Assembly (NCBI GenBank): GCA_050173015.1
Contig: JBFXLE010000009.1
Span: 98,913 to 162,912, forward strand
Source: Calditrichaceae bacterium
GTDB lineage: Bacteria; Calditrichota; Calditrichia; Calditrichales; JBFXGD01
Length of the DNA stretch: 64,000 nt
Reading direction: 5' to 3'
Shown here: piece after piece, positions 8,752 to 30,479 of the stretch
How positions within the stretch are numbered: position 1 is the first letter of the stretch
How the letters are laid out: the number at the start of each line of letters is the position of its first letter
Position numbers and translations under genes: made by a program
The notes under the pieces: model-generated
The model's input: the letters and a program-made list of their open reading frames with translations, nothing else
Told to the model about the DNA's origin: nothing
Database searches by the model: none

Positions 8752-8811
8752 TTACAAGAATAATAGGAAATACAATAGGAAATTTTAATTAAGGAAATTA
8801 AGAAGCCCAGC

Positions 8812-8942: not shown

Positions 8943-8967
8943 ACAAGCTAAAAAAAGAATATAGTTA

Positions 8968-11340: not shown

Positions 11341-11669
11341 CCAAGGCTAAAAAATAGAAACAAAAAGAATAAAATATTTGCCAAAAGGATGAAAATAGAA
11401 CGCCGCCTATGCGGCGTTATTGTTTTGCGACGCGGTTGCTTGCGCAGGGTACGGATTTAAGATATATTCAGGAGTAGTTATGTCATATTAGTCCCGGGAC
11501 GACTGAACTGCACACGTCTCAAATAAGTCAATTGATTGAATAAGGAATTCTGTTGATGATATTTTTGAAAGGGATTAGTTAATCGTAAAAAAAATATATA
11601 AACAATTGTTCATATACCGCTGATTTGGGTGGATAAGAACAATAACATATACACGCACGTTAGGTTGCA
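11341..11669 (+). repeat. Scaffold repeat copy 2: leader, integrase vestige, hairpin, GTT core
   Basis: Starts immediately after the attC-3 core. It translates as TPPMRRYCFATRLLAQGTDLRYIQE*. It carries the hairpin AACGCCGC-ctat-GCGGCGTT followed by attgtttt, and ends GTTAGGT at 11659, 25 bp before the next ATG. Confidence 0.85.
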
Positions 11670-11683
11670 TTAAAAAAGAAACC

Positions 11684-13149: not shown

Positions 13150-13227
13150 CCACCGCACAAATGGCATATTTGGTTTTTGCCGACGCACAGCCAAACGCTG
13201 AAAAAACCAAAAGAGCCATTTCTTGCC
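13150..13227 (+). repeat. IR-B1: structured inverted repeat of about 75 bp forming the 5' leader of hsdR
   Basis: The arms aaatggcatatttggttttt and aaaaaccaaaagagccattt are 17/20 complementary around a spacer of about 23 nt (gccgacgcacagccaaacgctg). It is homologous to 21722-21795 through to the start codon. Confidence 0.75.
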
Positions 13228-13251
13228 ATCTCACGACTGAAAGATAATGAT

Positions 13252-16098
13252 ATGACAACATATAAAAATCAAAATCCTGAACAAATAGCCAGAGACAAAA
13301 TTGACAAAATGTTAATTGAAGCTGGTTGGATTGTTCAATCTAAAAATGAAGTTGACTTGGGTGCAGGCAGAGGTGTTGCGTTGAGAGAATACCAAACGGA
13401 AACAAAATTTGCGGATTATGTGCTGTTTGTTGACAAAAACCCTGTTGGAATTATTGAGGCAAAAAAAGAAGACGAAGGACATAAACTAACCGTAGCGGAA
13501 GACCAAGCCTCTGAATATGCCAAAGCAAAACTAAAATATTTGGATAACGACCCATTGCCTTTTGTTTTTGAGAGTACCGGAACAATAACCCGTTTTAGAG
13601 ATACACGAGACCCAAAACCAAGAGGGCGACATATTTTTTGGTTTTACCGTCCCGAAACATTGGCGGAATGGCTACAAAAAGATAAAAGTTTAAGAGGTAG
13701 ATTATTAGATATTCCGCAATTAAATGAGACTGGGCTTCGCCCTGCTCAAATTAAGGCGATTAATAACCTTGAACAATCTTTTAAAAAGAACAAGCCAAAA
13801 GCTTTAATACAAATGGCTACCGGAGCAGGTAAAACTTTTACTGCCTGTACTTTTGTGTATCGCTTATTGGAACACGCCAAAGCCAAACGGATTTTATTTT
13901 TGGTTGACACCAAAAACTTAGGAGAACAAGCAGAACAGGAGTTTATGGCTTTTCAGCCCAACGACAGCAATCGCAAATTCACAGAATTGTATAATGTACA
14001 GCGTCTTACTTCAAGCTACATAGCAAGCGATAGTCAGGTTTGTATCTCTACCATTCAACGGATGTATGCCATTTTAAAAGGTGAAGAACTAGACGAAGGA
14101 GCCGAAGATACAAACCCGAACGAATCGACCTGGATGGAACAACAGCGAAATAAAAAACAGGCAATGCCTGTGGAATATTCTGCCAAAGTACCCATTGAAC
14201 AATTCGATTTTATTGTAATTGATGAATGCCACCGCTCTATTTACAATCTTTGGAAACAAGTGTTGGATTATTTCGATGCTTTCCTTATCGGCTTAACTGC
14301 CACACCCGATAAGCGAACTTTTGGCTTTTTTGAGGAAAATGTAGTGAGCGAATATACCTATGAAGAATCTGTGTTGGATGGTGTAAATGTTCCTTACGAT
14401 GTGTACAATATTGAAACTGAAATTTCGCAAAAAGGCAGTGTGATAAAAGCAGGTTGGTTTGTGGACAGACGAGATAAGCTCACCCGAAAAACGCGTTGGC
14501 AACAAGAAGATGAAGACACCGAATATTTGAAAAACGATTTGGATAAAAAGGTCGTTAATCCAAGCCAGATACGGAATATTATTCGCCAATACAAAAAAGC
14601 ATTGGAAACCGAAATTTTCCCGAACAGAAAAGACGAAAATGGAGAATACGAAGTTCCTAAAACACTGGTTTTTGCAAAAACTGACAGCCACGCGGATGAT
14701 ATAATCAAAATCATTCGTAAAGAATTTGACGAAGGCGATGATTTCTGCAAAAAACTGACTTATAAAATAAAAGAAGACCCAAAATCGGTGTTAAACCGTT
14801 TTCGGAATTCATATCATCCCCGCATTGCGGTTACGGTAGATATGATTGCAACGGGAACCGATGTAAAACCTTTGGAAGTGTTGTTGTTTATGCGTGATGT
14901 TAAAAGCACCAACTACTTTGAACAAATGAAGGGTAGAGGAACACGCACCATTAACAAAGATGCTTTTCAGGCAAACAACACCAATGTAAAAGGGGCTTGC
15001 AAAACCCATTTTATTATTGTGGATGCAGTTGGCGTAACAAAGTCGAAGAAAACCGACAGCCGGCCTTTGGAACGCAAACCAACTGTAGCCTTAAAAGATT
15101 TATTGGGAGCGGTAACAATGGGAGTTACCGAAGAAGATTTGTTTCTTTCGCTTGCAAATCGTTTGATACGATTAGAAAAAGAAATTACCGACAAGGAAAA
15201 AGATAAATTACTGGAACATTCCAAAGGCAAAAATCTGAAACAAATCAGCAAAGAATTATTATCGGCTTTTGATAAAGATGAAATTGAAAACAGAGCACAG
15301 GAAAAAATTGAAAAATTCTGTAAAGACGCCCTACAGGGCGTCTCTTCTGCTGCCGATTTATCTCCGGCACAAATAGAATCTTTCCGACAGGACGCACAGA
15401 AAGAATTGATTAATACCGCCGCTTCTACTTTTAACGGAAAGCTGAACGATTATATTGAAAAAGTGCGTATGGAACACGAGCAAATTATCGACAGCCACAA
15501 TATCGACACCGTAACAAAATCGGAATGGGACACCGCTTCGGTGGATAAAGCCAAAGAAACTGTAAAAGATTTTAACGAATACCTCGAAGCCAATCAGGAC
15601 GAGATAAAAGCATTGACCATTTTTTACAAACAACCCTACAACCGCCGAAACATTACCTTTAAAATGATTAAAGATGTGTTTGATAAACTGAAATTGGATA
15701 AACCCACCCTTGCCCCCGATTATGTTTGGGCGGCATACAGCCAATTGGAAGAGGTAAAAAGCAAACAACCGATTGACGAACTCACCGCGTTAATTTCGTT
15801 AATTCGCAGGGCTTGCGGAATTGACAGCGAGTTGAAAGCTTTTGATTCCACCATTGACGAAAATTTCAAAAACTGGATTTTCAAACAAAACGCAGGCAAG
15901 CACAACCGCTTTACAACCGAACAAATGGACTGGCTGCGAGAACTGAAAAATCACGTAGTAAATTCGTATCACATAGAAATTGAAGACCTCGATTATACAC
16001 CCTTTGATGAAAAAGGAGGACGTGGCAAAATGTACCAACTCTTTGGTGCCGAAATGAACGATATTATTAATGAACTTAACGAGGTATTAGCAGCATAA
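13252..16098 (+). CDS. hsdR: Type I restriction enzyme R subunit (HsdR), with an EcoEI-type C-terminal domain
   Basis: The N-terminus KIDKMLIEAGWIV...ADYVLFVD..PVGIIEAKKE is the HsdR_N nuclease fold. It also has helicase motif I (MATGAGKTFT), DECH (IVIDECHRS) and TATP, plus a C-terminal tail like EcoEI_R_C. I prefer the ATG at 13252 over the track start at 13177, which lies inside IR-B1. Confidence 0.85.
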   Translation: MTTYKNQNPEQIARDKIDKMLIEAGWIVQSKNEVDLGAGRGVALREYQTETKFADYVLFVDKNPVGIIEAKKEDEGHKLTVAEDQASEYAKAKLKYLDNDPLPFVFESTGTITRFRDTRDPKPRGRHIFWFYRPETLAEWLQKDKSLRGRLLDIPQLNETGLRPAQIKAINNLEQSFKKNKPKALIQMATGAGKTFTACTFVYRLLEHAKAKRILFLVDTKNLGEQAEQEFMAFQPNDSNRKFTELYNVQRLTSSYIASDSQVCISTIQRMYAILKGEELDEGAEDTNPNESTWMEQQRNKKQAMPVEYSAKVPIEQFDFIVIDECHRSIYNLWKQVLDYFDAFLIGLTATPDKRTFGFFEENVVSEYTYEESVLDGVNVPYDVYNIETEISQKGSVIKAGWFVDRRDKLTRKTRWQQEDEDTEYLKNDLDKKVVNPSQIRNIIRQYKKALETEIFPNRKDENGEYEVPKTLVFAKTDSHADDIIKIIRKEFDEGDDFCKKLTYKIKEDPKSVLNRFRNSYHPRIAVTVDMIATGTDVKPLEVLLFMRDVKSTNYFEQMKGRGTRTINKDAFQANNTNVKGACKTHFIIVDAVGVTKSKKTDSRPLERKPTVALKDLLGAVTMGVTEEDLFLSLANRLIRLEKEITDKEKDKLLEHSKGKNLKQISKELLSAFDKDEIENRAQEKIEKFCKDALQGVSSAADLSPAQIESFRQDAQKELINTAASTFNGKLNDYIEKVRMEHEQIIDSHNIDTVTKSEWDTASVDKAKETVKDFNEYLEANQDEIKALTIFYKQPYNRRNITFKMIKDVFDKLKLDKPTLAPDYVWAAYSQLEEVKSKQPIDELTALISLIRRACGIDSELKAFDSTIDENFKNWIFKQNAGKHNRFTTEQMDWLRELKNHVVNSYHIEIEDLDYTPFDEKGGRGKMYQLFGAEMNDIINELNEVLAA

Positions 16099-17636
16099 TG
16101 AGAGAAGATTGGATTGACGTTGAATTAAAAGATGTTTGCCTAAGTTCAAAGGGAAAGAAACCAAGTGTTTTAGAAAAAAATAATTCTGAAACTGCTAATG
16201 TGCCATATATAAATATCAAAGCTTTTGAGAAAGGTATAATAGAAGAATACACTGATGGTGAAAAATGCAATTTATGTGAAGATGGTGACTTGTTAATGGT
16301 TTGGGATGGTGCAAGGGCTGGGCTTACAGGTAAAGCTAAAAAAGGTGCTGTTGGTTCAACACTAATGAGAATTGAAGAAGTAAAAGGTATTGAAAAGGAA
16401 TATTTATATTATTTTCTTTTATCACTTTTTACAAAGATTAATACAAATCCAAGAGGTGTTGGTATTCCACATGTTGAACCACGAATACTATGGTTGTCAA
16501 AAGTATTAATTGTTAGCAGTCCCATCCAACGAGCAATAGTATCCAAAATCGAAGCCCTGTTTTCCGATTTGGACAACGGCATCGCCAATTTAAAAAAAGC
16601 ACAGGAGCAATTAAAAATATACCGTCAAGCGGTTTTGAAAAAGGCCTTTGAGGGCGAACTCACAAAAGAATGGCGTGAAAAGATTGTACAGACGCCCAAT
16701 TTGGGCGTATCAACGCCCCTGCCAACAGCCGAAGAACTGCTAAAACAAATAAAAGAAGAACGCCAAAACCACTACAACCAACAAATTGAAGACTGGAAAA
16801 AAGCGGTTAAGGAATGGGAGAAAAATGGGAAAGTTGGGAAGAAGCCAAGTAAGCCTAAGCAGCAAAAAGAATTGCCACCTTTAAATGAGGAAGAATTGAA
16901 TGAGCTGCCGAAATTGCCAAAGTCAATGGTATGGACACAACTTGGAAATGTGGTTTGGTCTGTAAAAGATGGACCTCATTTTAGCCCTAAATATTCAAAA
17001 ACTGGTATACCCTTTATCTCAGGTGGGAATATTAGACCAGAAAAAATTGACTTTGAAAAAGTAAAATATATTTCAGAAGAGCTTCATAAGGAACTAAGTC
17101 GAAGATGTAAACCACAATTAGATGACATTCTATACACCAAAGGCGGAACAACTGGAATTGCAAAAGTTAATACATATAAATTTGATTTTAATGTTTGGGT
17201 GCATGTAGCAGTATTAAGACCAATCCAAATGATTTTACCATTATATTTACAACATGTTTTAAATTCTTCTCATTGTTATAAACAATCGCAAGAATATACA
17301 CATGGGGTTGGTAATCAAGATTTAGGTTTAACAAGAATGATTTTAATCACACTGCCTATTTGTTGTAAAGAAGAACAAACCCAAATCGTCCAAGAAATAG
17401 AAAGCCGTTTATCGGTTTGCGACAAAGTAGAGCAAAGCATAACCGAAAGCCTTGAAAAAGCCGAAGCCCTTCGCCAAAGCATTCTTAAAAAAGCATTTGA
17501 GGGCAAATTATTAAGCGAAGCTGAAATAGAACAATGCAAAAAGGCAGCCGATTACGAACCTGCGGCAAAATTGTTGGAACGAATAAAACAGGAAAAAATA
17601 AATAAGGATAATAATAAAAAAACAAAATCAAAATAA
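16098..17636 (+). CDS. hsdS: Type I restriction-modification specificity subunit (HsdS)
   Basis: 512 aa. Two target-recognition halves are each followed by the conserved helix LKKAFEG(E/K)L (at about aa 180 and about aa 470). TAATG overlap with hsdR. The central linker carries a REP-like insertion. Confidence 0.85.
   Translation: MREDWIDVELKDVCLSSKGKKPSVLEKNNSETANVPYINIKAFEKGIIEEYTDGEKCNLCEDGDLLMVWDGARAGLTGKAKKGAVGSTLMRIEEVKGIEKEYLYYFLLSLFTKINTNPRGVGIPHVEPRILWLSKVLIVSSPIQRAIVSKIEALFSDLDNGIANLKKAQEQLKIYRQAVLKKAFEGELTKEWREKIVQTPNLGVSTPLPTAEELLKQIKEERQNHYNQQIEDWKKAVKEWEKNGKVGKKPSKPKQQKELPPLNEEELNELPKLPKSMVWTQLGNVVWSVKDGPHFSPKYSKTGIPFISGGNIRPEKIDFEKVKYISEELHKELSRRCKPQLDDILYTKGGTTGIAKVNTYKFDFNVWVHVAVLRPIQMILPLYLQHVLNSSHCYKQSQEYTHGVGNQDLGLTRMILITLPICCKEEQTQIVQEIESRLSVCDKVEQSITESLEKAEALRQSILKKAFEGKLLSEAEIEQCKKAADYEPAAKLLERIKQEKINKDNNKKTKSK
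16691..16708. repeat. REP-like palindrome a (partial), in frame inside hsdS
   Basis: GACGCCCAATTTGGGCGT, translated as QTPNLGVS in the HsdS central linker. Confidence 0.8.
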
Positions 17637-17687
17637 TTGTGAAACGCGTTGGACGTATTTGTCGCATTTGACGCGTTGGACGCATTG

Positions 17688-17716
17688 GTAGAGACGCCCA
17701 ATTTGGGCGTCTCTAC
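17688..17716. repeat. REP-like palindrome b (29 nt)
   Basis: GTAGAGACGCCCAATTTGGGCGTCTCTAC. It lies between hsdS and the RAYT gene, flanked by cgttggacg motifs and gatccc/gacgac short repeats. Confidence 0.85.
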
Positions 17717-17788
17717 GACGACGATCCCTACGATCCCGATCCCGACGACGACAATATCGTTCACGTTCACAATAACGAAAACAAAAAT

Positions 17789-18400
17789 ATGCCCGATAAA
17801 TTTCAAAACAAATACCGCATACCATCGGCACGATTGCAAACATGGGATTATGGAAGCAATGGAACCTATTTTATAACCATTTGCACCCAAAACCGTGAAC
17901 ATTATTTTGGTGAAATTACAGACGGTAATATGATATTATCCGAAATAGGAATTTTGGCGAACAAATATTGGAATGAAATACCAGAACATTTTCCATTTGT
18001 CAATTTGGATGAATTTGTGGTAATGCCCAACCACGTGCATGGGATTATTATCATTGATAAACCCGATGATGGACGGGATGATGGGCGGGACGTTGGACGG
18101 GACGTTGGACGGGACGTAGAGACGCCCAAATTGGGCGTCTCTACCAATACCAATACCAATACCAATACCAATCATCAAACCGCCACGGCATCCGAAAAAT
18201 GGAAACCGGCATCATTGGGGGTAATTATCAACCAATATAAACGAATGGCAACCATTAAATCGCGTAAAATCCACGCTGATTTTGGTTGGCAATCCCGTTT
18301 TTACGACCAGATCATACGAAACAACGAATCGTATGAAAAAATCAGAAATTATATTGTCAACAACCCATTGAAATGGGAAGAAGATAAATTTTACAATTAA
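17789..18400 (+). CDS. IS200/IS605-family Y1 (HUH) transposase of the REP-associated (RAYT) type
   Basis: 203 aa. NKYRIPSARLQTWDYGSNGTYFITICTQNREHYFG, the HUH motif VVMPNHVHGIIII, and the C-terminal catalytic-Tyr region GWQSRFYDQIIRN. It is interrupted in frame by a low-complexity/REP insert of about 35 aa. Confidence 0.8.
   Translation: MPDKFQNKYRIPSARLQTWDYGSNGTYFITICTQNREHYFGEITDGNMILSEIGILANKYWNEIPEHFPFVNLDEFVVMPNHVHGIIIIDKPDDGRDDGRDVGRDVGRDVETPKLGVSTNTNTNTNTNHQTATASEKWKPASLGVIINQYKRMATIKSRKIHADFGWQSRFYDQIIRNNESYEKIRNYIVNNPLKWEEDKFYN
18071..18172 (+). repeat. Composite in-frame insert in the RAYT gene: 12-mer x4, REP hairpin, hexamer x4.7
   Basis: GGACGGGATGAT/GGGCGGGACGTT/GGACGGGACGTT/GGACGGGACGTA at 18071-18118, the REP palindrome at 18116-18144, and (CAATAC)n at 18145-18172. 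Together these translate as GRDDGRDVGRDVGRDVETPKLGVSTNTNTNTNTN. Confidence 0.9.
18116..18144. repeat. REP-like palindrome c (29 nt), in frame inside the RAYT ORF
   Basis: GTAGAGACGCCCAAATTGGGCGTCTCTAC. Identical to palindrome b except for the flipped centre (aaatt versus aattt). Confidence 0.85.
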
Positions 18401-18415
18401 ATTGAAAGAAATAAT

Positions 18416-19936
18416 ATGTCAGAAAGTGCAATAGTATCAAAAGTGTGGAATTTCGCCAATGTTCTTAGAGACGATGGAGTGGGTTATGGTGATTATTTAG
18501 AGCAAATCACCTATTTGCTTTTCCTAAAAATGGCAGACGAACTTAACAAACCGCCCTACAATAAAGGTTTAAAATTTCCGAAACTCAAAAATGCTGAGGG
18601 TGTTGAATTGCCCGATGCCGAAACCTGCGACTGGCAAACGCTGTCGCAAAAACGTGGTTTGGAATTGGAAAATTTTTACAACCAAATGCTACGAAGTTTG
18701 GGAAGCGAAAAAGGAACGTTGGGGCAAATTTTCGTAAAAAGTCAAAACAAAATACAAGACCCATCAAAACTCTTAAAAATCATTGATATGATTGATAAAG
18801 AGCAATGGAGCTTAATGGGAACCGATGTAAAAGGGAAAATTTACGAAGGTCTTTTAGAGAAAAATGCCGAAGACACCAAAAGCGGTGCAGGGCAATATTT
18901 TACGCCTCGTTCGCTCATCAAAACAATGGTGGCTTGTGTTCGTCCCAAACCCATGAAAACCATTATAGACCCTGCTTGTGGCACTGGCGGTTTCTTTTTG
19001 GCAGCTTACGATTATATCAAAAGTCAGAATTTAGACCAGGAAGAAAAGGAGTTTTTGAAAAACAAAACTTTCTACGGAAACGAAATTGTAGCCAATACAC
19101 GCAGAATGTGTTTGATGAACATGTTTTTGCACAACATTGGCGAAATTGATGGCGAAACACTCATTTCTTCAGCTGATGCTTTGGTTTCGGACAATGGCAT
19201 ACGCTACGATTATGTGCTGGCAAATCCGCCTTTTGGTAAAAAAAGCAGTATGACCATTACCAACGAAGAGGGCAAACTGGAAAAGCAGGATTATACTATC
19301 AATCGTCAGGATTTTGTGGCTACCACAGCCAACAAGCAACTAAACTTTTTGCAACACATAAAAACGCTTTTAAAACTCACAGGCGAAGCAGCCGTTGTAC
19401 TTCCCGATAATGTTTTGTTTGAGGGCGGAGCAGGCGAAACGGTTCGGAAAGAATTGATGAAAACAACCGAATTGCATACAATTTTAAGACTTCCAACAGG
19501 TATATTTTACGCACAAGGTGTAAAAGCAAATGTTTTGTTTTTCGACAACAAACCAGCTTCAAAAGAGGCTTGGACAAAAGATGTTTGGATTTATGATTAT
19601 CGAAGTAACATAAGCCACACATTAAAGAAAAACCCAATGCGATTTGAGCATCTACAGGAATTCGTAAAACTCTACAATCCCGAAAACCGAAATAAAAGAA
19701 CAGAAACGTGGAGCGAAACAAATCCCGAAGGCAGATGGAGAAAGTATAGTTATGCTGAAATCATTGAACGAGATAAAACCAACTTGGATATATTTTGGAT
19801 TAAAGACAAAAGCTTAACCGACTTAGATAATTTACCCGACCCCGATATTTTGGCAAACGAAATCATTGAAAACATTGAAGCCGGATTAAATAGTTTTAAA
19901 GAAATAATGGAAACAATAAACGGAGATGAAAGCTAA
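18416..19936 (+). CDS. hsdM: Type I restriction-modification N6-adenine DNA methyltransferase (HsdM)
   Basis: 506 aa with an HsdM_N-like N-terminus, the SAM motif IIDPACGTGGFF and the catalytic motif LANPPFG. Confidence 0.9.
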   Translation: MSESAIVSKVWNFANVLRDDGVGYGDYLEQITYLLFLKMADELNKPPYNKGLKFPKLKNAEGVELPDAETCDWQTLSQKRGLELENFYNQMLRSLGSEKGTLGQIFVKSQNKIQDPSKLLKIIDMIDKEQWSLMGTDVKGKIYEGLLEKNAEDTKSGAGQYFTPRSLIKTMVACVRPKPMKTIIDPACGTGGFFLAAYDYIKSQNLDQEEKEFLKNKTFYGNEIVANTRRMCLMNMFLHNIGEIDGETLISSADALVSDNGIRYDYVLANPPFGKKSSMTITNEEGKLEKQDYTINRQDFVATTANKQLNFLQHIKTLLKLTGEAAVVLPDNVLFEGGAGETVRKELMKTTELHTILRLPTGIFYAQGVKANVLFFDNKPASKEAWTKDVWIYDYRSNISHTLKKNPMRFEHLQEFVKLYNPENRNKRTETWSETNPEGRWRKYSYAEIIERDKTNLDIFWIKDKSLTDLDNLPDPDILANEIIENIEAGLNSFKEIMETINGDES

Positions 19937-20081: not shown

Positions 20082-20209
20082 GCTAACACGCGGTATAAAA
20101 CATTGGGGTTTAAGTATTTATTCGAGCGTTCTACCCCGCATCAAGTTCGGTGTAACTCGACAGGATAGTAGCCCGCAATCCCTTACGAGTCATACACTCA
20201 AAGTTAGTT
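20082..20209 (+). repeat. attC-like site 5 (subtype Y)
   Basis: GCTAACacgcggtataaaacattgggg pairs with cccttacgagtcatacactcaaaGTTAGTt. The centre is homologous to attC-3 and attC-7. Confidence 0.65.
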
Positions 20210-20540
20210 CCAAGCCTAAAAAATAGAAACAACAAGAATAAAATATTTGCCAAAAGGATGAAAATAGAACGCCGCCTATGCGGCGTTATTGTTTTGCAAC
20301 GCGGTTGCTTGCACAGGATAGGGATTTAAGGTATATTCAGGAGTAGTTAGGTCATAATCGTTCCGGGACTACTGAAATTTGCGCACATCTCAAAAAAGTC
20401 TATTGATAAAAACAGTAATCCTACGGATGATATCTTTGAAAGGGATTAGATAATTGTAAAAGAAATATATAAACAATTGTTCATACACCGCCAATTTGGG
20501 CGGATAAGAACAATAGAATATATACGAACGTTGTGTGGCA
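20210..20540 (+). repeat. Scaffold repeat copy 3: leader, integrase vestige, hairpin, GTT core
   Basis: Same order as copy 2. It has the hairpin AACGCCGC-ctat-GCGGCGTT, the integrase-like frame FATRLLAQDRDLRYIQE*, the terminal hairpin ATTGTTC-ataca-CCGCC-aatttg-GGCGG-ataa-GAACAAT, and then GTTGTGT at 20530. Confidence 0.85.
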
Positions 20541-20572
20541 TTAGAAGTAACTTACATAAAAAAGGGTGACTT

Positions 20573-21160
20573 ATGGAAATAAAATTTGATGTGGAAATAC
20601 AAGATGAAGAGAAAGAACTTCTGAAAACGATATTACATTGTGATAATGATGAAGACTTAAATAATCTCTTGAATAAATTAGGCCGTTCTTCATTTGAAGA
20701 TATTAGAAGAATGACAATTGGACAAAAAGTATTTACTCGTGGAAGAGATATTTTAGAATATCGGTTATTTAATTTAATAAAGTTTTTCTTCGATGGGAAA
20801 ATACCAGACGAACAAAAAATATGTGATTTATTCCAAATAACGGCAACTGAAAGTCGAGCATTTATTCGCTCAATAATGTCAAAGTATCAATATGACTTAA
20901 AAGAAACAATATCTTCAACATTAAAAGAACAAGTAGAAAATATTCAAAAAGAAGAAAATGAAGAAGTTTATAAACTTTCCATTCAAAACCAGTATTTCAA
21001 AGATGAATTAAATAGAATATTAGGAACAATAGACACAAGTTTACCGATTATTGAAAAAGAGCGGGGAACTATTTCTACTTATGTAATTCAAACATCATCT
21101 TACCAGAAGTTATGTGAACATTTTGGCATTGAACTAGAAGAAGAAAACAATGAAAACTGA
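20573..21160 (+). CDS. Hypothetical protein (possible HTH-containing regulator or sensor)
   Basis: 195 aa with an acidic N-terminus. The ICDLFQITATESRAFIRSIMSKY segment looks like a helix-turn-helix. No family recognised. Confidence 0.45.
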   Translation: MEIKFDVEIQDEEKELLKTILHCDNDEDLNNLLNKLGRSSFEDIRRMTIGQKVFTRGRDILEYRLFNLIKFFFDGKIPDEQKICDLFQITATESRAFIRSIMSKYQYDLKETISSTLKEQVENIQKEENEEVYKLSIQNQYFKDELNRILGTIDTSLPIIEKERGTISTYVIQTSSYQKLCEHFGIELEEENNEN

Positions 21161-21569
21161 TTTACCTAATTTATTAACTGCATCAAGTATTCTATTGGGA
21201 ATTATTACTGCATTATATGGTTTATTTTTTCCTGCGATTAATTCAATTTTAGTAATAAAATCTAAGCCCCATAAGGTTGATAATAAGAAGGCCTACAGTG
21301 AAAGCAAGGATATTATAAAAGCAAAATATATTCCATTATTAATTGGTTCGTTAGTAATTACATTGATAAACATACCAGAGCTGTTTTCTCAATTAAGAAA
21401 TAGTTTTGTTGCAATAAAAACTAGTGGAATAGAGAACACAACATATGATACGTTAACAGCATCATTTATTGTCGTTTGCCTTTTTATGATTTTCATTACG
21501 ATAATGATGATAGCAACTGGTTTTAAGTTAAGAAAGAAAATAAAAGAACTTAATCCAAATGAACAATAA
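21150..21569 (+). CDS. Small 3-TM membrane protein, unknown function
   Basis: 139 aa. It overlaps the upstream ORF by 11 nt. Hydrophobic helices: SSILLGIITALYGLFFPAI, IPLLIGSLVITLINIP and FIVVCLFMIFITIMMIATGF. Confidence 0.5.
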   Translation: MKTDLPNLLTASSILLGIITALYGLFFPAINSILVIKSKPHKVDNKKAYSESKDIIKAKYIPLLIGSLVITLINIPELFSQLRNSFVAIKTSGIENTTYDTLTASFIVVCLFMIFITIMMIATGFKLRKKIKELNPNEQ

Positions 21570-21574
21570 CGCCA

Positions 21575-21704
21575 CACAACAAAAAATATAGTGCATTTGG
21601 CAGATGGTGCTAAAAATGAAAATGATTGCAATAAATGAACATAGTAGTAAATTGAAAGCTTGGAGCGTTGAAATGCCAAACGCACCATATTCAAACCGTT
21701 GTAT
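21575..21704 (+). repeat. attC-like site 6 (subtype X)
   Basis: CACAACaaaaaatatagtgcatttggca pairs with tgccaaacgcaccatattcaaaccGTTGTAt. It begins 6 nt after the stop of the 139-aa ORF. Confidence 0.6.
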
Positions 21705-21721
21705 GCCATGCTGGAAACGAG

Positions 21722-21795: not shown

Positions 21796-21825
21796 TTGTC
21801 AAACGCACATAGACTAAAACTAAAA

Positions 21826-24800
21826 ATGAATGAAGAAATAGTATCAGCAAGTGGAGAAAGAGCAGCAATGGGAGGCTATTTGCCTCAATTTGATGAGTTC
21901 GCTTGGTTTGTCTATTTGAATCTAATAAATAAAAAGCTTGAATGGATACGAATAGCAGACTCCAAGGCTGAAAAACTAGATGATATACAGTATTCTACTC
22001 ATTCAGAAATTCATGCATACCAAGTAAAATGGACTATCGCTGATGCAAATATATCATTTGCAAATTTTACGGATTTGTTTCCTCTTATCACCTCTAGTTG
22101 GAAGAGTTTAAAAACAGCTAATCCTAGCAAAAAAATAATTCCTCATTTAATCACTAACAAACCTATTTCCTCCCACGACAGCTTAAAGGTAGGCGATACA
22201 AAAATCGGTTCATTTCAAGACTTCGTCTCAGAAGTTTGGGTAAAGCTAAAATCAAATCAATCAATTGATGATAAGTGGAAACAAGTTCTTGAGGAACTCA
22301 AAAAGAGTTCAAAACTCAATGATTCTGAATTTGGAGAATTTATCATCTCTTTTGATTTTCAACCAGACTATAAACAAAAACAGTTTAGTATAGGAAATAT
22401 TAAATACTCTAAAGAAGACGAAGACCTTCAACAGATCAGTCGATATATAGTACAAAAAGTTGCTAGCCCGAAAAGAGTCGTTGAATTTACTCGCCAAGAA
22501 ATTATTAAAGAATTAGGTTGGTCTGATAGATTTAAAACAATTTTTAATCACGAGTTAATAGTCGATAGACAAAGATACCAGCCGATTCAATCGACAATTG
22601 ACCTGTTAAATTCAAAGTTAGAGGAGCATAAAAATGGATACCTGTTTTTGCTAGGTGGCCCAGGTTCTGGAAAATCTACCTTATTGAATCAATGGTCAAA
22701 AGGCCTTAAAACACGAATAATACGATACTACGCCTTTGATTTCGTTAATCCATCTTCACACTTAAACTTTTATGAAAGAGGAAATGCTACCCATCTTTTT
22801 TTCGATTTAGTTTTTCAATTAAAGGAAGCTGGAATATATAAAAGAGACATTCTTCCATATAAAGACTTACTTTTTCTAAAAGATGTATTCAATGAGCAAT
22901 TAAGTGCAATTGGAGAGGACTTTGTGACAAATGGTCAATCGACCATAATATTGATTGATGGTCTAGATCATGTTCCTAGGGAATACAAATCAACAACTAA
23001 TAGTTTCCTACGAGAACTTCCTTTACCATCTTCTCTCCCAAACGGGGTCTTCATCATTTTAGGTAGTCAATCTTATGAACTTGAAGACATTCAACAGGAA
23101 ATTAAAACTGAATTTCAGAAAGGAAATAGAACCATTCAAATTGATCCACTTAAAAAGGAGGAAGTATACAAGTACATTGATAATCTTGATACTTCAATTC
23201 AACTTAATGGTTCTCAAAAGCTGCAAATATTTGAGAAATCAGAAGGACACCCGTTATACCTGTCATACTTAATTGAAAAAATCAATAACGCAGATTCTAT
23301 TAACGATACAATCGAATCTTTTGAAGTTATTGATGGTAGTATTGATAATTATTACAAAAAAATATGGGAGCCTATCCAGAAAGAAGATAGCCAAATTCAA
23401 TTCTTAGGTTTAATTGCGAGAATTAATGGTTTGATCAAACTTCAGTTCATTCAGGAATGGGACTTCCAACCGAGTGTTTTAAAGTCCTTTCGTGAAAAGG
23501 CCAGATTTCTGTTTAATGAAACCGAAAAAACTTTGTCTTTCTTTCATAATTCGTTCAAGCAATTCCTTCTTCATCATACCTCTTTAAATTACTTAACAGA
23601 TGAGTTTGATCCGACAATTAACGTCAATTATCATAGTCAACTTACTGATTATTATGTAAAATCAGAGATTGAAAAATCCTGGAAACAGAATCATCACCTA
23701 TTTCAGGCTAAACAATATGATAAGTTTATTTCAGAAGTTACCCCAAATAGTATTACTGAACAGTTACTTAACTTCAGACCAGCAGAAGAAATTAAGCAGG
23801 ATGCAAAATTGGGAGTTGAAATAGCAAGACAGAATAAGGACATTAATACTCTGGTAAGATATCTGTTTTCATTAGCAGAAATTGAAAGAAGATTATTCAA
23901 TATTGATCCCACATCCTTTATAGAAGAACTTTTGTACCTAAATAAATACGACTTAGCAAGGGATTATCTAAGAACTGGCAACACCCTCCATTGTAGCGAA
24001 TCGTACGCATTTAAAGCATGTCGATTGTTTATTGAATCTGGGCACAAATCAGAAGGAGCAACTTTATACAATTTGGCTTATCCAGAAATCATTACAGATT
24101 CCGGGATACATATTGATGATTCTCACAGATATGAAGAAATAAGAGATTCTTTAGAAGAATGGATTTATACTTCTCCCTATTTTGAAGCAACCGAGAATAT
24201 TTTCTCAATAATTGAGAAAATTCAATTCTCAGGTAGCATACGGAAAAACAGGTTTGAAGAAGAAGAATCTGATTTACTTTTAAGGTTACTCTCTAATCTT
24301 GGTTATAGTTTAGTGGATCAAAACAAGTGGGATGATTTTAATAAAGTCATAGAAAAAATAGATTCGAGGTCTTCAAGAGGAAGGAATTCTCTTTTCCAAC
24401 TTATAAAGTACGCTATCGAGCAATGCCTTGACTTAAAAGATAGTAGTCGAGTGAATGAATATCTGTCATTTTTAACCACTCATTTCACAAAAGAGAAGAC
24501 AAAATCCATTGGCAAAATATTCATTGCAGATTTAGTCTATAAAGTCACTAGAGACCTAAATGAAACATATAGTTGGATTAAGGAAGTTGAGCAACCATCT
24601 AATGTGGGTAAAGACCAGCTAGGATATGATGATTCGTTAGACGCCTTTCTTCCATTAATCAAACTTAACAAGTTACTTAACCTATGTGGAAAAGGAGTTT
24701 CGATTACGTCTGCAATTCCATCTGTTGCGAAAGGTACTGATGAAGAAGTTTTAGTGGAGTTTGAACGAATGTTATGTATTACCACTCAAATTCTAGCCGA

Positions 24801-27800
24801 GGGCATTCTTCAAACACCAATGCCAGGTGATCCTATTAAAAGAGTATTTCCAATTGTTCGGTTTTATTACAAAGAAATATCCCACCGAAACAGCTATTGG
24901 TATAAGCTGACACAAGCAAAAGGCCAATATTATGATTTTTTGATTTCGGCGGTGTCTGAATTGGGTACTGAAAAATTAGAATTATTAGGAGATTATTTGT
25001 TCAGTGAGTTTAAGAATATTCCAAAATATTGGAGTACAAGTGTCCAGCGGAAAATCATTAAATCCCTCTTGAATAAAGGGTTTAATGCTAAAAAAGCAGT
25101 AATAAAGTTGAGATCCATAGAGGATTCCATGTTGGAAGGTCACGATATAGATGGCCGTATAACCGAATGCTTGGCCCACTCAAAAGTATGGTTCATTTTA
25201 GGCAAGCTAGATGAAGGTGAAATATGGCTCAAACAGGCTATTCAAGAATCTATTGGAGTAGGATATAGAAAAGATTATCAATTTAGTACATGGATTGAAT
25301 GGTTAAGAAAAATAAACCATAAAGACCCATCAAAAGCTACTGAAAGAATAAAGTGGTTCTTATCTCATTTAAAACATATTAAAGAAACCACGGAGGGAAG
25401 GGCTTATTGGAATGCTTCTGAAGAATTATTAGAAGTCGCATATGAACACAATCTGGAAGATGGCTTAGAGCAGGCTATTTGGCAATTAAAGAACGATCTA
25501 ATAGACTTTAAAGATTCAATTGCTCTTTTCATAAAATATTTTATGATAAAAACAAAAAGTAAAGAAGAGTTCAAAAGTATTGTTCAACTATATAGTGATT
25601 TATATCTGCTTCTTGCTGAATCTGCCAATTCTTCCCTGCTCAAATCTATCTTAGAAAAAGGGCATGAAATTTTAAAAGAAGATTTTTTAGTAGAACATGC
25701 TCAAGCCATTATTTCGGCAATAGAAATTAAAGCTTACGAAGAAACCAGACATTACTTACTATCTGAAATTGATAACTTCTATACATCAAAAGGGCTAAAA
25801 GCAGAAGACTATTATTCACGGTTTAATATACCGGCAAAAAGCGAAAGAAATAGTTCATCAACATCTTCTAACACATTGACTTTAAAGACAGATCATGAAA
25901 AGATTGATGAAAGTGAAGTACTAAAACGAGTTACAAATTTTGAAGATTTCAAAAAAATCATTCAAGAAGAAGATCAGGCAAATTCATTTTTTAATTGGTC
26001 AAAGGTTATAGATAAAATAGCTCCATTATTGTCTTCAAGTCAAATTGAAGAAATCACCAAACTGGCTAGAATAGGAAGGAGAGAGTCAGATTTCTATGCT
26101 AAATTAAGTGAGGCTGCCTTGGAGCTAGAAAACACAGAACTCGCAACTAGTTTAGCCAATAAAAGTATTGAGTTATCGAGCGAATCGGGGTGGGTAAAAT
26201 ATTATGATGGAGGAACAAGAATCAATGCATTTAATGCACTAAAACGAATCAATCCTGCAATATCATCTAATAAGGCATTTGAAGTATTTGCTCATGATAT
26301 AGTAACCAGTAATTATCCAAGTTCATATATCGAACATCTTGAAGACATCGTTCCACTTTTAACAGAAAATTATGTTGAGGAAGAGCTTTGGCATGAAATA
26401 TATGGTTACCTGCAAAGACTGATGTCGAATAGTAAACCGGTTGAGGATTTACCTGTTCTTCCATCATTAAATCGTCCAATCATAGAAACCTTAGTCGATT
26501 ATATGGTGTATTTATCACAGAGTCCCGTCTCAATAATAAAGGAGCAATCTTTACAGCTATTGGCAAAATATATAAATCAAGATAATGACTATGCTTTGAC
26601 TCAATTACTGAATGGACGTTTAGATGATTACTCAAGTATGAACGTGATGATGAAATTAACTGCGTTCAACTCCCCCAAAGTCCATTTGCTTAAATCAAAG
26701 ATCAATAGTTTAGCTATATCAAATGACTATCAATTAAGAGAAAGCTCAAAACAAATACTTTCCTCAATTCAAGAAGAAATTCCAACTCCCAAAAACATCG
26801 AATTATCTAAAGTATACTCTTTCCATATTCCAGAAACTGAAAAACCAGATTTTAGAAAAGAGATTGACCCTTATTTCCCAGAAGTTGATACTAATGACCC
26901 CCGTGATCTGATACGACCATTTGAATTTTTAATCAAAATCTTATCTGAGGAGTCTGGGATTAATGAATCTAACCTTATATATAGAGCCTACTCGATCATG
27001 AAAGAAATTGGTCGAGAGGAGGAATGGTCCGTTGAGTATGAAAAAAAGCTTAGAAATCATTTAGAAGAAATTTACCTAAGATACTCTTACCCTAGACCAA
27101 GGGTAATTGCGGCTCGAAGAGCCATAATGCATGTCACCAATGAATTAATAGATTCTGGAACAATTGATGATGAGCGAATTCAGAAACCTTTTATATCACA
27201 TGATTATGCGGTTCTGTTTTTTAATGAAATAGCAAAACCTGAATTCATTCAAACTATTAAAGAGAGAGATTTTGGAGGAGTTGGCAATGATTGGTTAGAT
27301 CGAATAGGTGAATCAGAAAGATTAAACGAATCAATATTAGACTATAATGATAACTTCAAGATTATTGCAGAATATAATCAAGTTAAAAATTTAGATTGGG
27401 GTTCTCCTACTGAAGAATACATGTACCAAATTGCGGTTAATGAGGAGTTGGATGAAGAAGATAATTACATTTTTGGCTCTGTTTTTCACCAATTAAGCAG
27501 TAACTATCATGATTTGAGAAGTGGTGGACATTTTATTGTTGTAGTCAGGGATCATAGATTTGACCAATTTGATCTGAAATCTAAGTGGATTGCAATTAAC
27601 CCTGTTTTGGCTAGATACTTAGGATGGGAGCCTGAAACAACCAAATTATTTGCTTGGAAAAACTCGCAAGGTGAATTGATGGCGGAATCAATTTATTGGT
27701 CAAATGGAAATATTAACATGACACCTCGTAAGGATGGAGAAGTCGGGGAAGGGTGGTTTGTTATTGTTTCCAAAGATGGATTAGAGAAGATAAAATCTAT

Positions 27801-27897
27801 CGAGAAGAAATTGTTTCTGCAAAAGAAATTAACAAGATCTAAATTTGAAGATTCAGTTCTAATGAATAATCAAGCAATTAGTGTGACAAAAATTTGA
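21826..27897 (+). CDS. Giant STAND-type P-loop NTPase with an N-terminal Cap4/DUF4297-like PD-(D/E)xK nuclease and a long helical-repeat C-terminus (Avs-like antiviral ATPase candidate)
   Basis: The N-terminus SGERAAMGGYLPQFDEFAW...AEKLDDIQYS..EIHAYQVKW matches the DUF4297 pattern (GG..GF.YQ ... E..DD ... QVK). Walker A is FLLGGPGSGKSTLLNQW and Walker B is TIILIDGLDHV, followed by about 1500 aa of helical sequence. I prefer the ATG at 21826 over the TTG at 21796. Confidence 0.65.
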   Translation: MNEEIVSASGERAAMGGYLPQFDEFAWFVYLNLINKKLEWIRIADSKAEKLDDIQYSTHSEIHAYQVKWTIADANISFANFTDLFPLITSSWKSLKTANPSKKIIPHLITNKPISSHDSLKVGDTKIGSFQDFVSEVWVKLKSNQSIDDKWKQVLEELKKSSKLNDSEFGEFIISFDFQPDYKQKQFSIGNIKYSKEDEDLQQISRYIVQKVASPKRVVEFTRQEIIKELGWSDRFKTIFNHELIVDRQRYQPIQSTIDLLNSKLEEHKNGYLFLLGGPGSGKSTLLNQWSKGLKTRIIRYYAFDFVNPSSHLNFYERGNATHLFFDLVFQLKEAGIYKRDILPYKDLLFLKDVFNEQLSAIGEDFVTNGQSTIILIDGLDHVPREYKSTTNSFLRELPLPSSLPNGVFIILGSQSYELEDIQQEIKTEFQKGNRTIQIDPLKKEEVYKYIDNLDTSIQLNGSQKLQIFEKSEGHPLYLSYLIEKINNADSINDTIESFEVIDGSIDNYYKKIWEPIQKEDSQIQFLGLIARINGLIKLQFIQEWDFQPSVLKSFREKARFLFNETEKTLSFFHNSFKQFLLHHTSLNYLTDEFDPTINVNYHSQLTDYYVKSEIEKSWKQNHHLFQAKQYDKFISEVTPNSITEQLLNFRPAEEIKQDAKLGVEIARQNKDINTLVRYLFSLAEIERRLFNIDPTSFIEELLYLNKYDLARDYLRTGNTLHCSESYAFKACRLFIESGHKSEGATLYNLAYPEIITDSGIHIDDSHRYEEIRDSLEEWIYTSPYFEATENIFSIIEKIQFSGSIRKNRFEEEESDLLLRLLSNLGYSLVDQNKWDDFNKVIEKIDSRSSRGRNSLFQLIKYAIEQCLDLKDSSRVNEYLSFLTTHFTKEKTKSIGKIFIADLVYKVTRDLNETYSWIKEVEQPSNVGKDQLGYDDSLDAFLPLIKLNKLLNLCGKGVSITSAIPSVAKGTDEEVLVEFERMLCITTQILAEGILQTPMPGDPIKRVFPIVRFYYKEISHRNSYWYKLTQAKGQYYDFLISAVSELGTEKLELLGDYLFSEFKNIPKYWSTSVQRKIIKSLLNKGFNAKKAVIKLRSIEDSMLEGHDIDGRITECLAHSKVWFILGKLDEGEIWLKQAIQESIGVGYRKDYQFSTWIEWLRKINHKDPSKATERIKWFLSHLKHIKETTEGRAYWNASEELLEVAYEHNLEDGLEQAIWQLKNDLIDFKDSIALFIKYFMIKTKSKEEFKSIVQLYSDLYLLLAESANSSLLKSILEKGHEILKEDFLVEHAQAIISAIEIKAYEETRHYLLSEIDNFYTSKGLKAEDYYSRFNIPAKSERNSSSTSSNTLTLKTDHEKIDESEVLKRVTNFEDFKKIIQEEDQANSFFNWSKVIDKIAPLLSSSQIEEITKLARIGRRESDFYAKLSEAALELENTELATSLANKSIELSSESGWVKYYDGGTRINAFNALKRINPAISSNKAFEVFAHDIVTSNYPSSYIEHLEDIVPLLTENYVEEELWHEIYGYLQRLMSNSKPVEDLPVLPSLNRPIIETLVDYMVYLSQSPVSIIKEQSLQLLAKYINQDNDYALTQLLNGRLDDYSSMNVMMKLTAFNSPKVHLLKSKINSLAISNDYQLRESSKQILSSIQEEIPTPKNIELSKVYSFHIPETEKPDFRKEIDPYFPEVDTNDPRDLIRPFEFLIKILSEESGINESNLIYRAYSIMKEIGREEEWSVEYEKKLRNHLEEIYLRYSYPRPRVIAARRAIMHVTNELIDSGTIDDERIQKPFISHDYAVLFFNEIAKPEFIQTIKERDFGGVGNDWLDRIGESERLNESILDYNDNFKIIAEYNQVKNLDWGSPTEEYMYQIAVNEELDEEDNYIFGSVFHQLSSNYHDLRSGGHFIVVVRDHRFDQFDLKSKWIAINPVLARYLGWEPETTKLFAWKNSQGELMAESIYWSNGNINMTPRKDGEVGEGWFVIVSKDGLEKIKSIEKKLFLQKKLTRSKFEDSVLMNNQAISVTKI

Positions 27898-28023: not shown

Positions 28024-28145
28024 ATACAACAATGTGTATAATTCATAAGGGTTTCAGCGGATTGCAAGCCGTATCACCCGCATCAAATTCGGGTGGTAAC
28101 TTGATAAGTAAAAAGTTCGCAATCCCTTACGAATCATAGTTAGCT
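28024..28145 (+). repeat. attC-like site 7 (subtype Y), last in the array
   Basis: catACAACaatgtgtataattcataaggg pairs with cccttacgaatcataGTTAGCt. The centre (gggtttcagcgg...ggtaacttgataag) is homologous to attC-3. Confidence 0.6.
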
Positions 28146-28285
28146 CCAAGGCTAAAAAATAGAAACAAAAAGAATAAAATGTTTGCCAAAAGAATAGAAA
28201 TAAAAGCCACCGCACAGTAAGCACATTTGCAATTCGCGCGAGCCGGCGCGAAAACCAAAAATTGCAAAAGATTGCAATCTTGCCG
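28146..28285 (+). repeat. Terminal scaffold leader plus IR-B5 (no cargo)
   Basis: ccaaggctaaaaaatagaaacaaaaagaataaaatgtttgccaaaag matches the leader of scaffold copies 2 and 3. It is followed not by the integrase vestige but by gccaccgcaca..cacatttgcaattcgcgcgagccggcgcgaaaaccaaaaattgcaaaag..cttgcc. That sequence combines the left edge of IR-B1/B3 with the body of IR-B2. Confidence 0.7.
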
Positions 28286-28659: not shown

Positions 28660-30057
28660 ATGATAAAAACGATCATTTTTCTCATCGCCATAAGTATTGC
28701 ATCGCAACTCAATGCTCAAAGCAAAGAATCTCTTTCTCCAATAATATTTATTTATGATGCCAGTGGCTCTATGTGGGGTCGGATACAAGGCGAAACAAAA
28801 ATGGAGATTGGCGCTGATGTCTTATCTGCCGCTGTAAATAGCCTTCCCGATAATCAAAAAACAGGATTTGTCGTCTACGGTCACCGTAAGGAGGGTGATT
28901 GCGCCGATGTGGAGTTTCTGGTTGATGTTGAAAGTGGAACAAAAGCTGATGTTATTCAAGCGGTTAAGGGGATAAAGCCGCTCGGAAAAACGCCTTTGGC
29001 ATATTCCGCTTTACAGGTGATGAATAGAATGCGTCAAACCAAATTTAAAGCAACCATTATATTAATTACTGATGGAATAGAATCTTGTGACGGAGATATT
29101 TGTGATGTGATACAAGCTGCTAAAAAAGAAGGTATTGATTTTAAACTTCATATAGTTGGGTTTGGTTTAAAAGACGCAGATACCCGGCAATTAAAATGCG
29201 CTGCCGACGCGGGAGGCGGAAATTATTATAACGCGGAAGATGCCGGTGGTTTAGGTGATGTTTTAGGTGAAGCGTCTAGTATGACTGTTGACGAGCCGAA
29301 AGGAAATTTTTCGGTATTTGCCGGAAAAAATGGTGTGGCTATAGATGCCTGGGTAAAAGCCTTTGATATTGTAAGCAAACGAAAGCCGGTCATGGTTCGA
29401 ACCTACCAGGATACCGCCTATTTTTATTTACCTCCCGGTACATACAATTTTGAAGTGGTCCCTTTGGAGGGGAGTGATATGGATATGATAACCGTTTCTA
29501 ACATTGAAAGTTTTGAAAATAAAATGACGCATCAAACCATTTCTTTCGATGGAGGAAAACTTGGTATTACCACAACCAACAATGGAAAAAACTGGGATTG
29601 TATCGTGAAATTAATCGACCAAAAAGGAAAGGTCGCCGCGTCAGTTCGAACCTACTCCGCGCCAAAAGAAGTGGAAGTAAATCCAGGCTCTTATAAAGTT
29701 TCCATTCAGGCATTAGCTATGGAAGGAATAAATACCTATACAGAATTAGAAAATAATGTTATCCGGGCTGGCGGTATGACACCGGTTTCGTATGATTTCA
29801 AAACCGGTAATTTTGAAATATTTACAAAAGCAGGTAATGAAAATATAGACGCTGCTGTCTCCTTAAAAGAAATGATTTCCGGTAAAAGCGTCGCCGGGTC
29901 ACGTACCTACACGAAAGGGGCAAAATTTCTGCTCAATCCCGGCACATATGAAGTAAAAGTTGTGCCGCTGGGATCTCATAAGGGTAAAGACGCTCAAATA
30001 TTTACTATACAGGTAAAACAAGGTGAACTTACCACTAAAGAAGTGAAATTTTTCTGA
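28660..30057 (+). CDS. Secreted von Willebrand factor type A (vWA) domain protein
   Basis: Signal peptide, the MIDAS motif IFIYDASGSMWG, ILITDGIESCDG, and a repetitive beta-rich C-terminus. Confidence 0.75.
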   Translation: MIKTIIFLIAISIASQLNAQSKESLSPIIFIYDASGSMWGRIQGETKMEIGADVLSAAVNSLPDNQKTGFVVYGHRKEGDCADVEFLVDVESGTKADVIQAVKGIKPLGKTPLAYSALQVMNRMRQTKFKATIILITDGIESCDGDICDVIQAAKKEGIDFKLHIVGFGLKDADTRQLKCAADAGGGNYYNAEDAGGLGDVLGEASSMTVDEPKGNFSVFAGKNGVAIDAWVKAFDIVSKRKPVMVRTYQDTAYFYLPPGTYNFEVVPLEGSDMDMITVSNIESFENKMTHQTISFDGGKLGITTTNNGKNWDCIVKLIDQKGKVAASVRTYSAPKEVEVNPGSYKVSIQALAMEGINTYTELENNVIRAGGMTPVSYDFKTGNFEIFTKAGNENIDAAVSLKEMISGKSVAGSRTYTKGAKFLLNPGTYEVKVVPLGSHKGKDAQIFTIQVKQGELTTKEVKFF

Positions 30058-30479
30058 TGAAAAAAGGATTTAAACCAGCCGGTATTGCCTTTTATTTTTT
30101 AACGCTTATTGTATTTTTTATTATTGGGATTTACATAGCGGGATTTGTCGGAGCAGGAAAGAATCAAATGTTAGCCGGGGGAGCCATCGTTGTAGGATGG
30201 GGAGTTTTATTTGCCGCTATTGCCTTTTTTGCTTCTTTCTTTATCGCTTATTATGCGCAGCACAGGAACATCGTACGCCTTAATTGGATATTATTAGTGT
30301 TGTTAGTGATTCTCTACGGAATTACTCAGTATCGTTATATCGAACGTCAAAAAGAAAAGAAAAATGAGGAGATCAGGAAAGAACAGCCCCAAAAGAAAAC
30401 GACAAAGTCTGTTCCTGTGGAGCCATCTTCAATGACCTATGAAAAAATTGCATTGAAAAAGAGTCCCATTGAAATATAG
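30057..30479 (+). CDS. Small membrane protein
   Basis: 140 aa. TGATG overlap with the vWA gene. Four hydrophobic helices and a charged C-terminal tail. Confidence 0.55.
   Translation: MKKGFKPAGIAFYFLTLIVFFIIGIYIAGFVGAGKNQMLAGGAIVVGWGVLFAAIAFFASFFIAYYAQHRNIVRLNWILLVLLVILYGITQYRYIERQKEKKNEEIRKEQPQKKTTKSVPVEPSSMTYEKIALKKSPIEI

Follow-up and report, generated by a model that had tools for sequence, protein, structure and literature searches.

A mobile soluble-plus-membrane gene pair from a Calditrichaceae defence island as a candidate phage-defence or toxin-antitoxin module

Two overlapping genes, here called A and B, in a 64,000-nucleotide stretch of the Calditrichaceae bacterium contig JBFXLE010000009.1 (hereafter the window; positions refer to it unless another locus is named) form a mobile module of a soluble protein and a membrane partner, both from uncharacterised families. 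Gene A (20573..21160, forward strand) encoded a soluble protein of 195 amino acids (aa) and gene B (21150..21569, forward strand) a predicted inner-membrane protein of 139 aa, as assigned from the open reading frames (ORFs), their homologues and AlphaFold models. Judged by gene order and flanking sites, the pair is a self-contained, horizontally mobile two-gene module carried on integrons or genomic islands. We regard it as a good candidate for a phage-defence or toxin-antitoxin (TA) module, not as a demonstrated defence system. From its gene architecture and neighbourhoods we propose, with slightly less than even confidence, an abortive-infection or TA-like system in which the effector would be the membrane protein B, with A serving as sensor or controller.

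Conservation and distribution of the gene pair

An earlier interpretation of this DNA (the sequence-only reading) had described two ORFs sharing 11 nucleotides (nt), which proved exact, and homologue families were recovered for both, so that A and B can be taken as real genes rather than chance ORFs. It had also treated the two as partners, and their co-occurrence across genomes was perfect in every locus examined. The ORFs of each fetched locus were searched with hidden Markov models (HMMs) for both genes. B directly followed A, in the same orientation, at all 28 loci with continuing sequence and at 6 of 6 further loci (34/34), and look-ups that started from B in Mucilaginibacter, Salmonella and a JGI metagenome found A directly upstream each time (3/3). 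The junction between the genes ranged from a 14-nt overlap to a 25-nt gap, and the partners were still homologous, with invariant residues kept, at 27% identity. No third conserved gene was found at A-B loci; upstream ORFs of 236-247 aa in Bacteroidota, and RmuC, were considered for this role and were locus-specific. The constancy of this arrangement marks A and B as one conserved, translationally coupled functional unit.

The pair was found in about 27 lineages from at least 11 phyla, with representatives in Calditrichota, Bacteroidota, Desulfobacterota, Spirochaetota, Chloroflexota, Verrucomicrobiota, Actinomycetota, Acidobacteriota, Bacillota, Deinococcota and Gammaproteobacteria. Its distribution was sparse and scattered, and only one of 5,426 complete Escherichia coli genomes carried it. 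No homologue was present in 50,697 phage records or in 2.9 million IMG/VR contigs, and a phage-borne or holin-type lysis module was rejected on this ground. In Salmonella enterica GCA_008172165.1 (locus L037, 7384-8393), A was frameshifted near codon 35 and B was intact. Gene A was also split or truncated in three nanopore-derived metagenome-assembled genomes (MAGs; L025, L028 and L029), where the splits may be assembly indels.

Mobility as integron cassettes

The sequence-only reading had framed the pair as a cassette associated with attC-like sites, and this framing was borne out in other genomes, where the same pair was a genuine integron cassette. On chromosome 2 of Vibrio chagasii it formed one cassette of the chromosomal integron, between attC sites of the Vibrio cholerae repeat (VCR) type at 9811-9887 and 10963-11092 of that locus, and at least seven attC copies were present in the 20-kb locus around it. 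VCR-type attC sites also flanked the pair on both sides in Pseudoalteromonas donghaensis, as did short TAACAAC...GTTRRRY hairpins in Desulfacinum infernum (z -3.4 and -2.3). A repeated attC-like element lay directly upstream of the pair in a spirochaete MAG, where it is probably an integron cassette as well. The attC sites flanking the pair in Pseudoalteromonas (L011, 11916-11990 and 12945-13066) were closely related to that in Vibrio (L022, 10963-11092), suggesting that the whole cassette, genes and attC together, moved between these genera.

In the window, the pair sat between a scaffold repeat ending in GTTGTGTGGC on its 5' side and an attC-like hairpin on its 3' side. The R'-like core site GTTGTGTGGC (20530..20539, forward strand) marks the 5' boundary of the cassette, and an exact inverted copy of it was found at 21571-21580, directly 3' of the B stop codon. 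These were the sole two occurrences in the window, but chance alone would not uncommonly yield two matches to a 10-mer at no more than one mismatch. At its 3' end the cassette has an attC-like imperfect hairpin folding on the bottom strand (21568..21716, reverse strand). A canonical attC site folds into an imperfect hairpin that has R'' (RYYYAAC) and R' (GTTRRRY) boxes as well as L'' and L' boxes; the hairpin in the window was bipartite, with a 9-bp outer R stem, an 18-bp inner L-box stem and a large variable loop. Its R''-like GCCACACAAC (21571-21580) paired with GTTGTATGC near 21703, both slightly off the attC core consensus, and its fold energy was only modestly better than that of shuffled sequences (z -1.4). 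The pair was also a compositional island, with a guanine-plus-cytosine (GC) content of 27-30%, compared with 38-42% for the scaffold and the type I restriction-modification (R-M) genes; the STAND gene that follows has 32-35%.

Genomic neighbourhoods

The pair had been likened to abortive-infection modules from its layout, and the neighbourhoods of its homologues were in keeping with that suggestion, being frequently defence islands or mobile elements. In Franconibacter the pair adjoined ZorD, a retron-type reverse transcriptase (RT), Ogr/Delta and a P4-type primase, and in other strains it occupied the proBA site. The E. coli O128:H27 copy lay in an island with an RT, a recombinase, an AAA ATPase and an integrase; those of Klebsiella and Salmonella adjoined an integrase next to mutS, and that of Pantoea was accompanied by a relaxase, two integrases, an RT and AAA_13. 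Type IIG R-M genes accompanied the pair in Marinilabiliales (with RmuC and Shedu SduA_C), Gaoshiqia (with a methyltransferase and a helicase) and Anaerolineales (with a PLD-SNF2 helicase), and ATPases did so in Solirubrobacterales (AAA_21/AAA_15); in Mucilaginibacter the pair occurred with AAA_13. Recognisable defence genes lay within about three genes of the pair in at least 10 of the approximately 27 lineages, by a hand count made without a background control.

Within the Enterobacteriaceae, the pair co-travelled with a retron-type RT of about 568 aa on the opposite strand (L010 17504-19210; L021 12501-14207; L032 11012-12718), in E. coli, Phytobacter and Pantoea. Since this co-travel was not seen in other phyla, the RT and A-B are probably neighbours at a shared hotspot rather than parts of one system.

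Protein A

A total of 72 homologues of A were recovered, with identities from 98% down to 36% and E-values from 1e-116 to 1e-25, and an exhaustive HMM search (E<=1e-3) enlarged the family to 531 clusters at 50% identity, nearly all of them stand-alone proteins of about 190 aa. The AlphaFold model of A (predicted local distance difference test, pLDDT, 88; predicted template modelling score, pTM, 0.76) comprised a strongly conserved N-terminal helical domain (residues ~1-108) and a more variable C-terminal alpha-beta-alpha-beta-alpha module (~109-190), with a mean pairwise identity across the family of 0.49 in the former and 0.37 in the latter. The most conserved part of the family was a helix-turn-helix (HTH)-like region within the N-terminal domain, consisting of helix 80-87, a three-residue turn and helix 91-104. 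A conserved core could be written as GQKVFTRGxDILEYRL...IPDEQ...LFQxTxxxSRxxxRSxxSKYQY, and the invariant residues were F54, R56, G57, D59, R64, P78, F87, Q88, T90, R95, S103, K104, Y105, Y107 and N147.

The sequence-only reading had described A as an acidic protein with a possible HTH. Helix-turn-helix geometry was indeed present in the AlphaFold model, but no significant match to an HTH family accompanied it, and the Pfam HTH families did not match A. Its acidic character held locally, with a net charge of -9 in the C-terminal half, but was not a trait of the family, in which charge ranged from -9 to +6. In Foldseek searches of the Protein Data Bank (PDB), matches to ETS and to ArgR and Lrp, the latter two being winged-helix regulators with C-terminal alpha/beta domains, were all at E>0.9, and echoes of LAGLIDADG-type alpha/beta folds were non-significant. 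The best match was Lpg1083/SidN (E 8.5e-3; template modelling score 0.51), a Legionella effector with an orphan fold that was uninformative about A.

In some homologues (P0070, P0071, P0093 and P0190) one N-terminal domain was followed by the ~75-aa C-terminal module in two or three tandem copies. Fusions of A to B were sought as evidence of interaction and none was found, the long members of the A family being tandem repeats of the C-terminal domain. A module that is variable and sometimes duplicated would fit a role in recognition.

Protein B

For B, 20 close homologues were found, and a profile that included distant partners extended the family to at least 95 clusters of 125-150 aa; an identical protein was on record from a Calditrichaceae MAG. 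The AlphaFold model (pLDDT 92) consisted of three long helices (5-34, 42-92 and 101-134), and hydropathy gave three transmembrane (TM) segments. The earlier description of B, as a membrane protein of three helices that ends in a basic tail, was upheld, and its positive-inside pattern was conserved. Across 15 diverse pairs the charge was -0.5 at the N-terminus, +2.3 in loop 1, -0.2 in loop 2 and +3.3 in the C-terminal tail, from which B is predicted to have its N-terminus outside and its C-terminus inside, with a basic cytoplasmic loop 1. Conserved residues were S13, Y23, Y27, H41, D44, P62-L63 and P76, together with an invariant Y99.

Fold searches with B returned no significant structural relative, only generic helical bundles and long-helix subunits of the ExbB/TolQ type at E>1. 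Its match to AI-2E/PerM-type permeases was sub-threshold (E 0.004; 16.9 bits against a cut-off of 34.3), and one homologue carried the JGI label 'PerM'.

The statement that the pair belongs to no named family stood, as neither protein had an above-threshold match in Pfam, NCBIfam, PADLOC or PHROGs, including the curated TA families in the first three of these. Sub-threshold library matches to MpPF26, AI-2E, GrpE and coiled-coil families were set aside as noise. Models of PADLOC-DB v2.0.0, which dates from 2023 and thus has later-described systems outside its scope, gave nothing at E<=0.1 for either protein. Profile searches of A and B against PDB sequences yielded no significant match, a BFVD structure search yielded no match, and we found no description of the pair in the literature by protein accession or by topic.

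Proposed function and alternative explanations

We postulate that B would be the effector, its three long helices oligomerising into a pore or channel that collapses membrane integrity or potential. A would be its cytoplasmic controller, with the invariant HTH-like N-terminal domain either holding B inactive or engaging a conserved nucleic-acid or protein ligand, and with the variable, sometimes tandem C-terminal module recognising a cue of infection. Upon this trigger, or upon loss of A, B would be released, and the cell would stop growing or die before phage progeny are made. The more specific proposition is that of an unrecognised anti-phage abortive-infection system, made of two proteins without known fold relatives (a sensor with a multipliable C-terminal module and a three-helix pore former) and spread over at least 11 phyla as integron-cassette or island cargo; we hold this a little more tentatively still, as possible rather than probable.

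Several observations weigh against an abortive-infection function. That B rather than A is the effector is an assumption, and no enzymatic, pore-forming or sensor domain was recognisable in either protein by library, profile or fold searches. No upstream operator motif common to A-B loci was detected across 25 loci; a palindrome, GATTAATC, was present upstream of A only in closely related enterobacterial copies. Electrostatic docking between an acidic A and a basic B was considered and rejected, as charge complementarity between the two was not conserved. The association with defence genes is the uncontrolled hand count given above, and some neighbourhoods were neutral (L035, Anaerolineaceae L018, Acidimicrobiaceae L024 and, in Pseudoalteromonas, the regions on either side of the cassette). 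A broken A beside an intact B, as in Salmonella, would be awkward if free B were lethal, and is a weak hint against simple lethality of B.

A plain addiction role fits the same data as abortive infection. Here B would be a membrane toxin and A a labile, autoregulating antitoxin, and the pair would serve to stabilise integron arrays or islands rather than to resist phages. Sedentary chromosomal integron arrays and integrase-bounded islands, where the pair is resident, are places in which TA cassettes commonly occur; its translationally coupled operon with the putative antitoxin first, the HTH-like domain of A, and a sparse distribution driven by horizontal transfer are likewise what this explanation would predict. 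Neither protein resembles the TA families in Pfam, NCBIfam or PADLOC, however, and A would be an atypical antitoxin at 195 aa with a repeat-capable C-terminal module. The lack of a conserved upstream operator despite an invariant 'recognition helix' and the frameshifted A beside an intact B in Salmonella also count against it. We consider a purely addictive role unlikely, although it is the strongest of the competing explanations and in part the same hypothesis as ours, because a module can be both TA and abortive infection. The roles might instead be reversed, with B a membrane sensor or anchor that sequesters A until a membrane perturbation (such as phage DNA injection or envelope stress) frees it as a regulator or blocker, its HTH-like domain then acting on a conserved target, either nucleic acid or protein. 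No surface of the system is more conserved than the HTH-like region of A, which argues for a universal ligand. In B, a conserved cytoplasmic motif, H41-x2-D44, lies where helix 2 begins and could dock A; the fold of A also weakly echoes the ArgR and Lrp winged-helix regulators, at the E-values given above. Against this stand the want of a significant HTH family match for A, of a conserved DNA motif near the operon and of an enzymatic domain through which A could serve as an effector, and we judge the reversed arrangement improbable.

Marginally less probable again is an accessory function outside defence, such as membrane transport or a stress response by a small protein that has its own dedicated cytoplasmic regulator or chaperone, the pair being integron cargo like many other adaptive cassettes. 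Some neighbourhoods were metabolic or neutral, most integron cassettes are of diverse and unknown function, and the AI-2E/PerM match and 'PerM' label of B point in this direction; that match is far under threshold and spans three of eight TM helices, however, and strict pairing, rarity (as in E. coli) and a frequent defence-island setting are unexpected for a simple transporter. The sequence-only reading had further linked the pair to the neighbouring 2033-aa STAND (Avs-like) gene, of which A and B would then be accessory sensor or effector partners. The sole evidence for this is adjacency in the window, where 227 nt separate the B stop codon from the STAND start. An attC-like element lies between the two, their GC contents differ, the neighbourhoods of A-B elsewhere are entirely different, and no STAND relative was found in 38 other A-B loci (619 kb), so that the link did not survive: this explanation is effectively refuted and we give it next to no weight.

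Comparison with known systems and significance

The closest analogue to the proposed abortive-infection system in logic is RexA/RexB of phage lambda, to which the proteins are unrelated. Both are two-gene operons in which the cytoplasmic protein is encoded first and a small polytopic protein of the inner membrane, about 140 aa long (RexB has 144 aa), comes second. The logic proposed for A-B, with a sensor activating a membrane effector to cause abortive infection, is also that of RexAB. Membership of RexAB was rejected, with an hhalign probability of 0.3% for the A family profile against RexA and of 0.3% for B against RexB, and the PDB matches that Foldseek gave for A included no structure of RexA. 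The systems differ further in that B has three TM helices and RexB four, A has 195 aa and RexA 279 aa, and A-B was never found phage-borne whereas RexAB is a prophage locus.

At least one-third of unknown cassettes from mobile integrons give phage resistance, and about one-third of those have TM helices (10.1101/2024.07.02.601719). Like these bacteriophage-resistance integron cassettes (BRiCs) and the defence cassettes of sedentary integrons, A-B is compact cargo bounded by attC sites, found in the attC arrays of Vibrio, Pseudoalteromonas and Desulfacinum, and, as an uncharacterised cassette that encodes a TM protein, it resembles the roughly one-third of described BRiCs with TM helices, a likeness drawn from the descriptions of BRiCs rather than from their sequences. 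It differs from them in comprising two genes and, in the window, in lying amid decayed recombinase remnants without an intact integron integrase. With type II-like TA systems that have membrane toxins, the pair shares small overlapping genes, a soluble HTH-like partner upstream of a membrane protein and a location in integrons or islands; unlike them, it shows no family similarity, a large putative antitoxin with a repeat-capable C-terminal domain and no detected operator. Kiwa KwaAB, the TM effectors of CBASS/Pycsar and Zorya ZorAB similarly combine a membrane protein with one or more cytosolic components and reside in defence islands, but their PADLOC v2 models matched neither A nor B at the threshold given above.

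Should the pair protect against phages, about 1 kb of DNA would encode a compact new defence system that has two novel folds and occurs very widely among taxa, and integrons would have shuttled the same defence cassette among Calditrichota, Desulfobacterota, Spirochaetota and Vibrionaceae. Should it be merely a TA pair, it would represent a new family of membrane toxins that stabilise integron arrays. The pair is directly testable, since it occurs naturally in E. coli (O128:H27 strain 90-9281, COG34_RS05165/05170) and in other enterobacteria.

Scaffold repeats and the surrounding defence island

The sequence-only reading had placed the pair behind an integrase vestige within a repeated scaffold, and both were real, the former as a box II remnant of a tyrosine recombinase with stop codons and the latter as repeat copies. 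The ~345-nt scaffold copy preceding A (copy 2; 20172-20546, forward strand) was 83-93% identical to 11302-11675, and a partial third copy lay at 28096-28260. Copy 2 contained a terminator-like hairpin at 20268-20287 and, at ~20270-20400, the decayed C-terminus of the recombinase, which read ...RRYCFATRLLAQDRDLRYIQE*LGHNRSGTTEICAHL... and was interrupted by stop codons and a frameshift; the copy ended at the core site. A palindrome, CCGCCAATTTGGGCGG, was also located in copy 2 at ~20489-20504, and is related to an inverted repeat of the type I R-M locus described below. The copies diverged just past a GTTRRRY-like core, which was GTTAGGT in copy 1 (fitting GTTRRRY) and GTTGTGT in copy 2; since similarity between the copies ended just after this core, the repeat stops where the cargo starts. 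The scaffold was absent from other A-B loci and is cassette context, outside the conserved module.

The three scaffold copies preceded different cargoes, namely a pair of 194+150 aa, A-B, and a pair of a VWA-domain and a TM protein. A-B had been noted to occupy the same scaffold slot as the 194+150-aa pair, and no homology between the two pairs was found. All three recombinase remnants were C-terminal, decayed and pointed towards the cargo, and no intact tyrosine recombinase or integron integrase was present among the ORFs of the window that were scanned, so that the array resembles an integrase-less attC cluster (like a cluster of attC sites lacking integron-integrases, CALIN) with duplicated attI-like junctions. 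Related repeated elements (families D4, D5 and D15) followed other modules of the window.

The surroundings of the pair constituted a defence island with Thoeris-like, type I R-M and STAND genes and the VWA and TM pair. At its left end, a Thoeris-like pair (7343-8751) encoded a ThsB TIR protein of 168 aa and a 301-aa Macro-domain protein of the ThsA type. The type I R-M locus (13177-19936) contained a 34-nt perfectly complementary inverted repeat with the core GTAGAGACGCCCAATTTGGGCGTCTCTAC (16686-16726, 17684-17717 and 18104-18148), which bracketed a 397-nt segment situated between hsdS and an ORF of 203 aa, while a third copy lay within hsdS; the repeat could be an invertible segment or an element similar to repetitive extragenic palindromes. 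The NACHT/STAND protein downstream of B (21796-27897; 2033 aa) matched Avs1b only in its NTPase region (aa 269-597; PADLOC E 2.4e-39), and no domain was assigned to the ~260 aa at its N-terminus or to the ~1400 aa at its C-terminus. Behind scaffold copy 3, at 28660-30479, a VWA-domain protein of 465 aa was followed by a multi-TM protein of 140 aa whose gene begins on the last base of the first, making this another pair of soluble and membrane proteins in the array.

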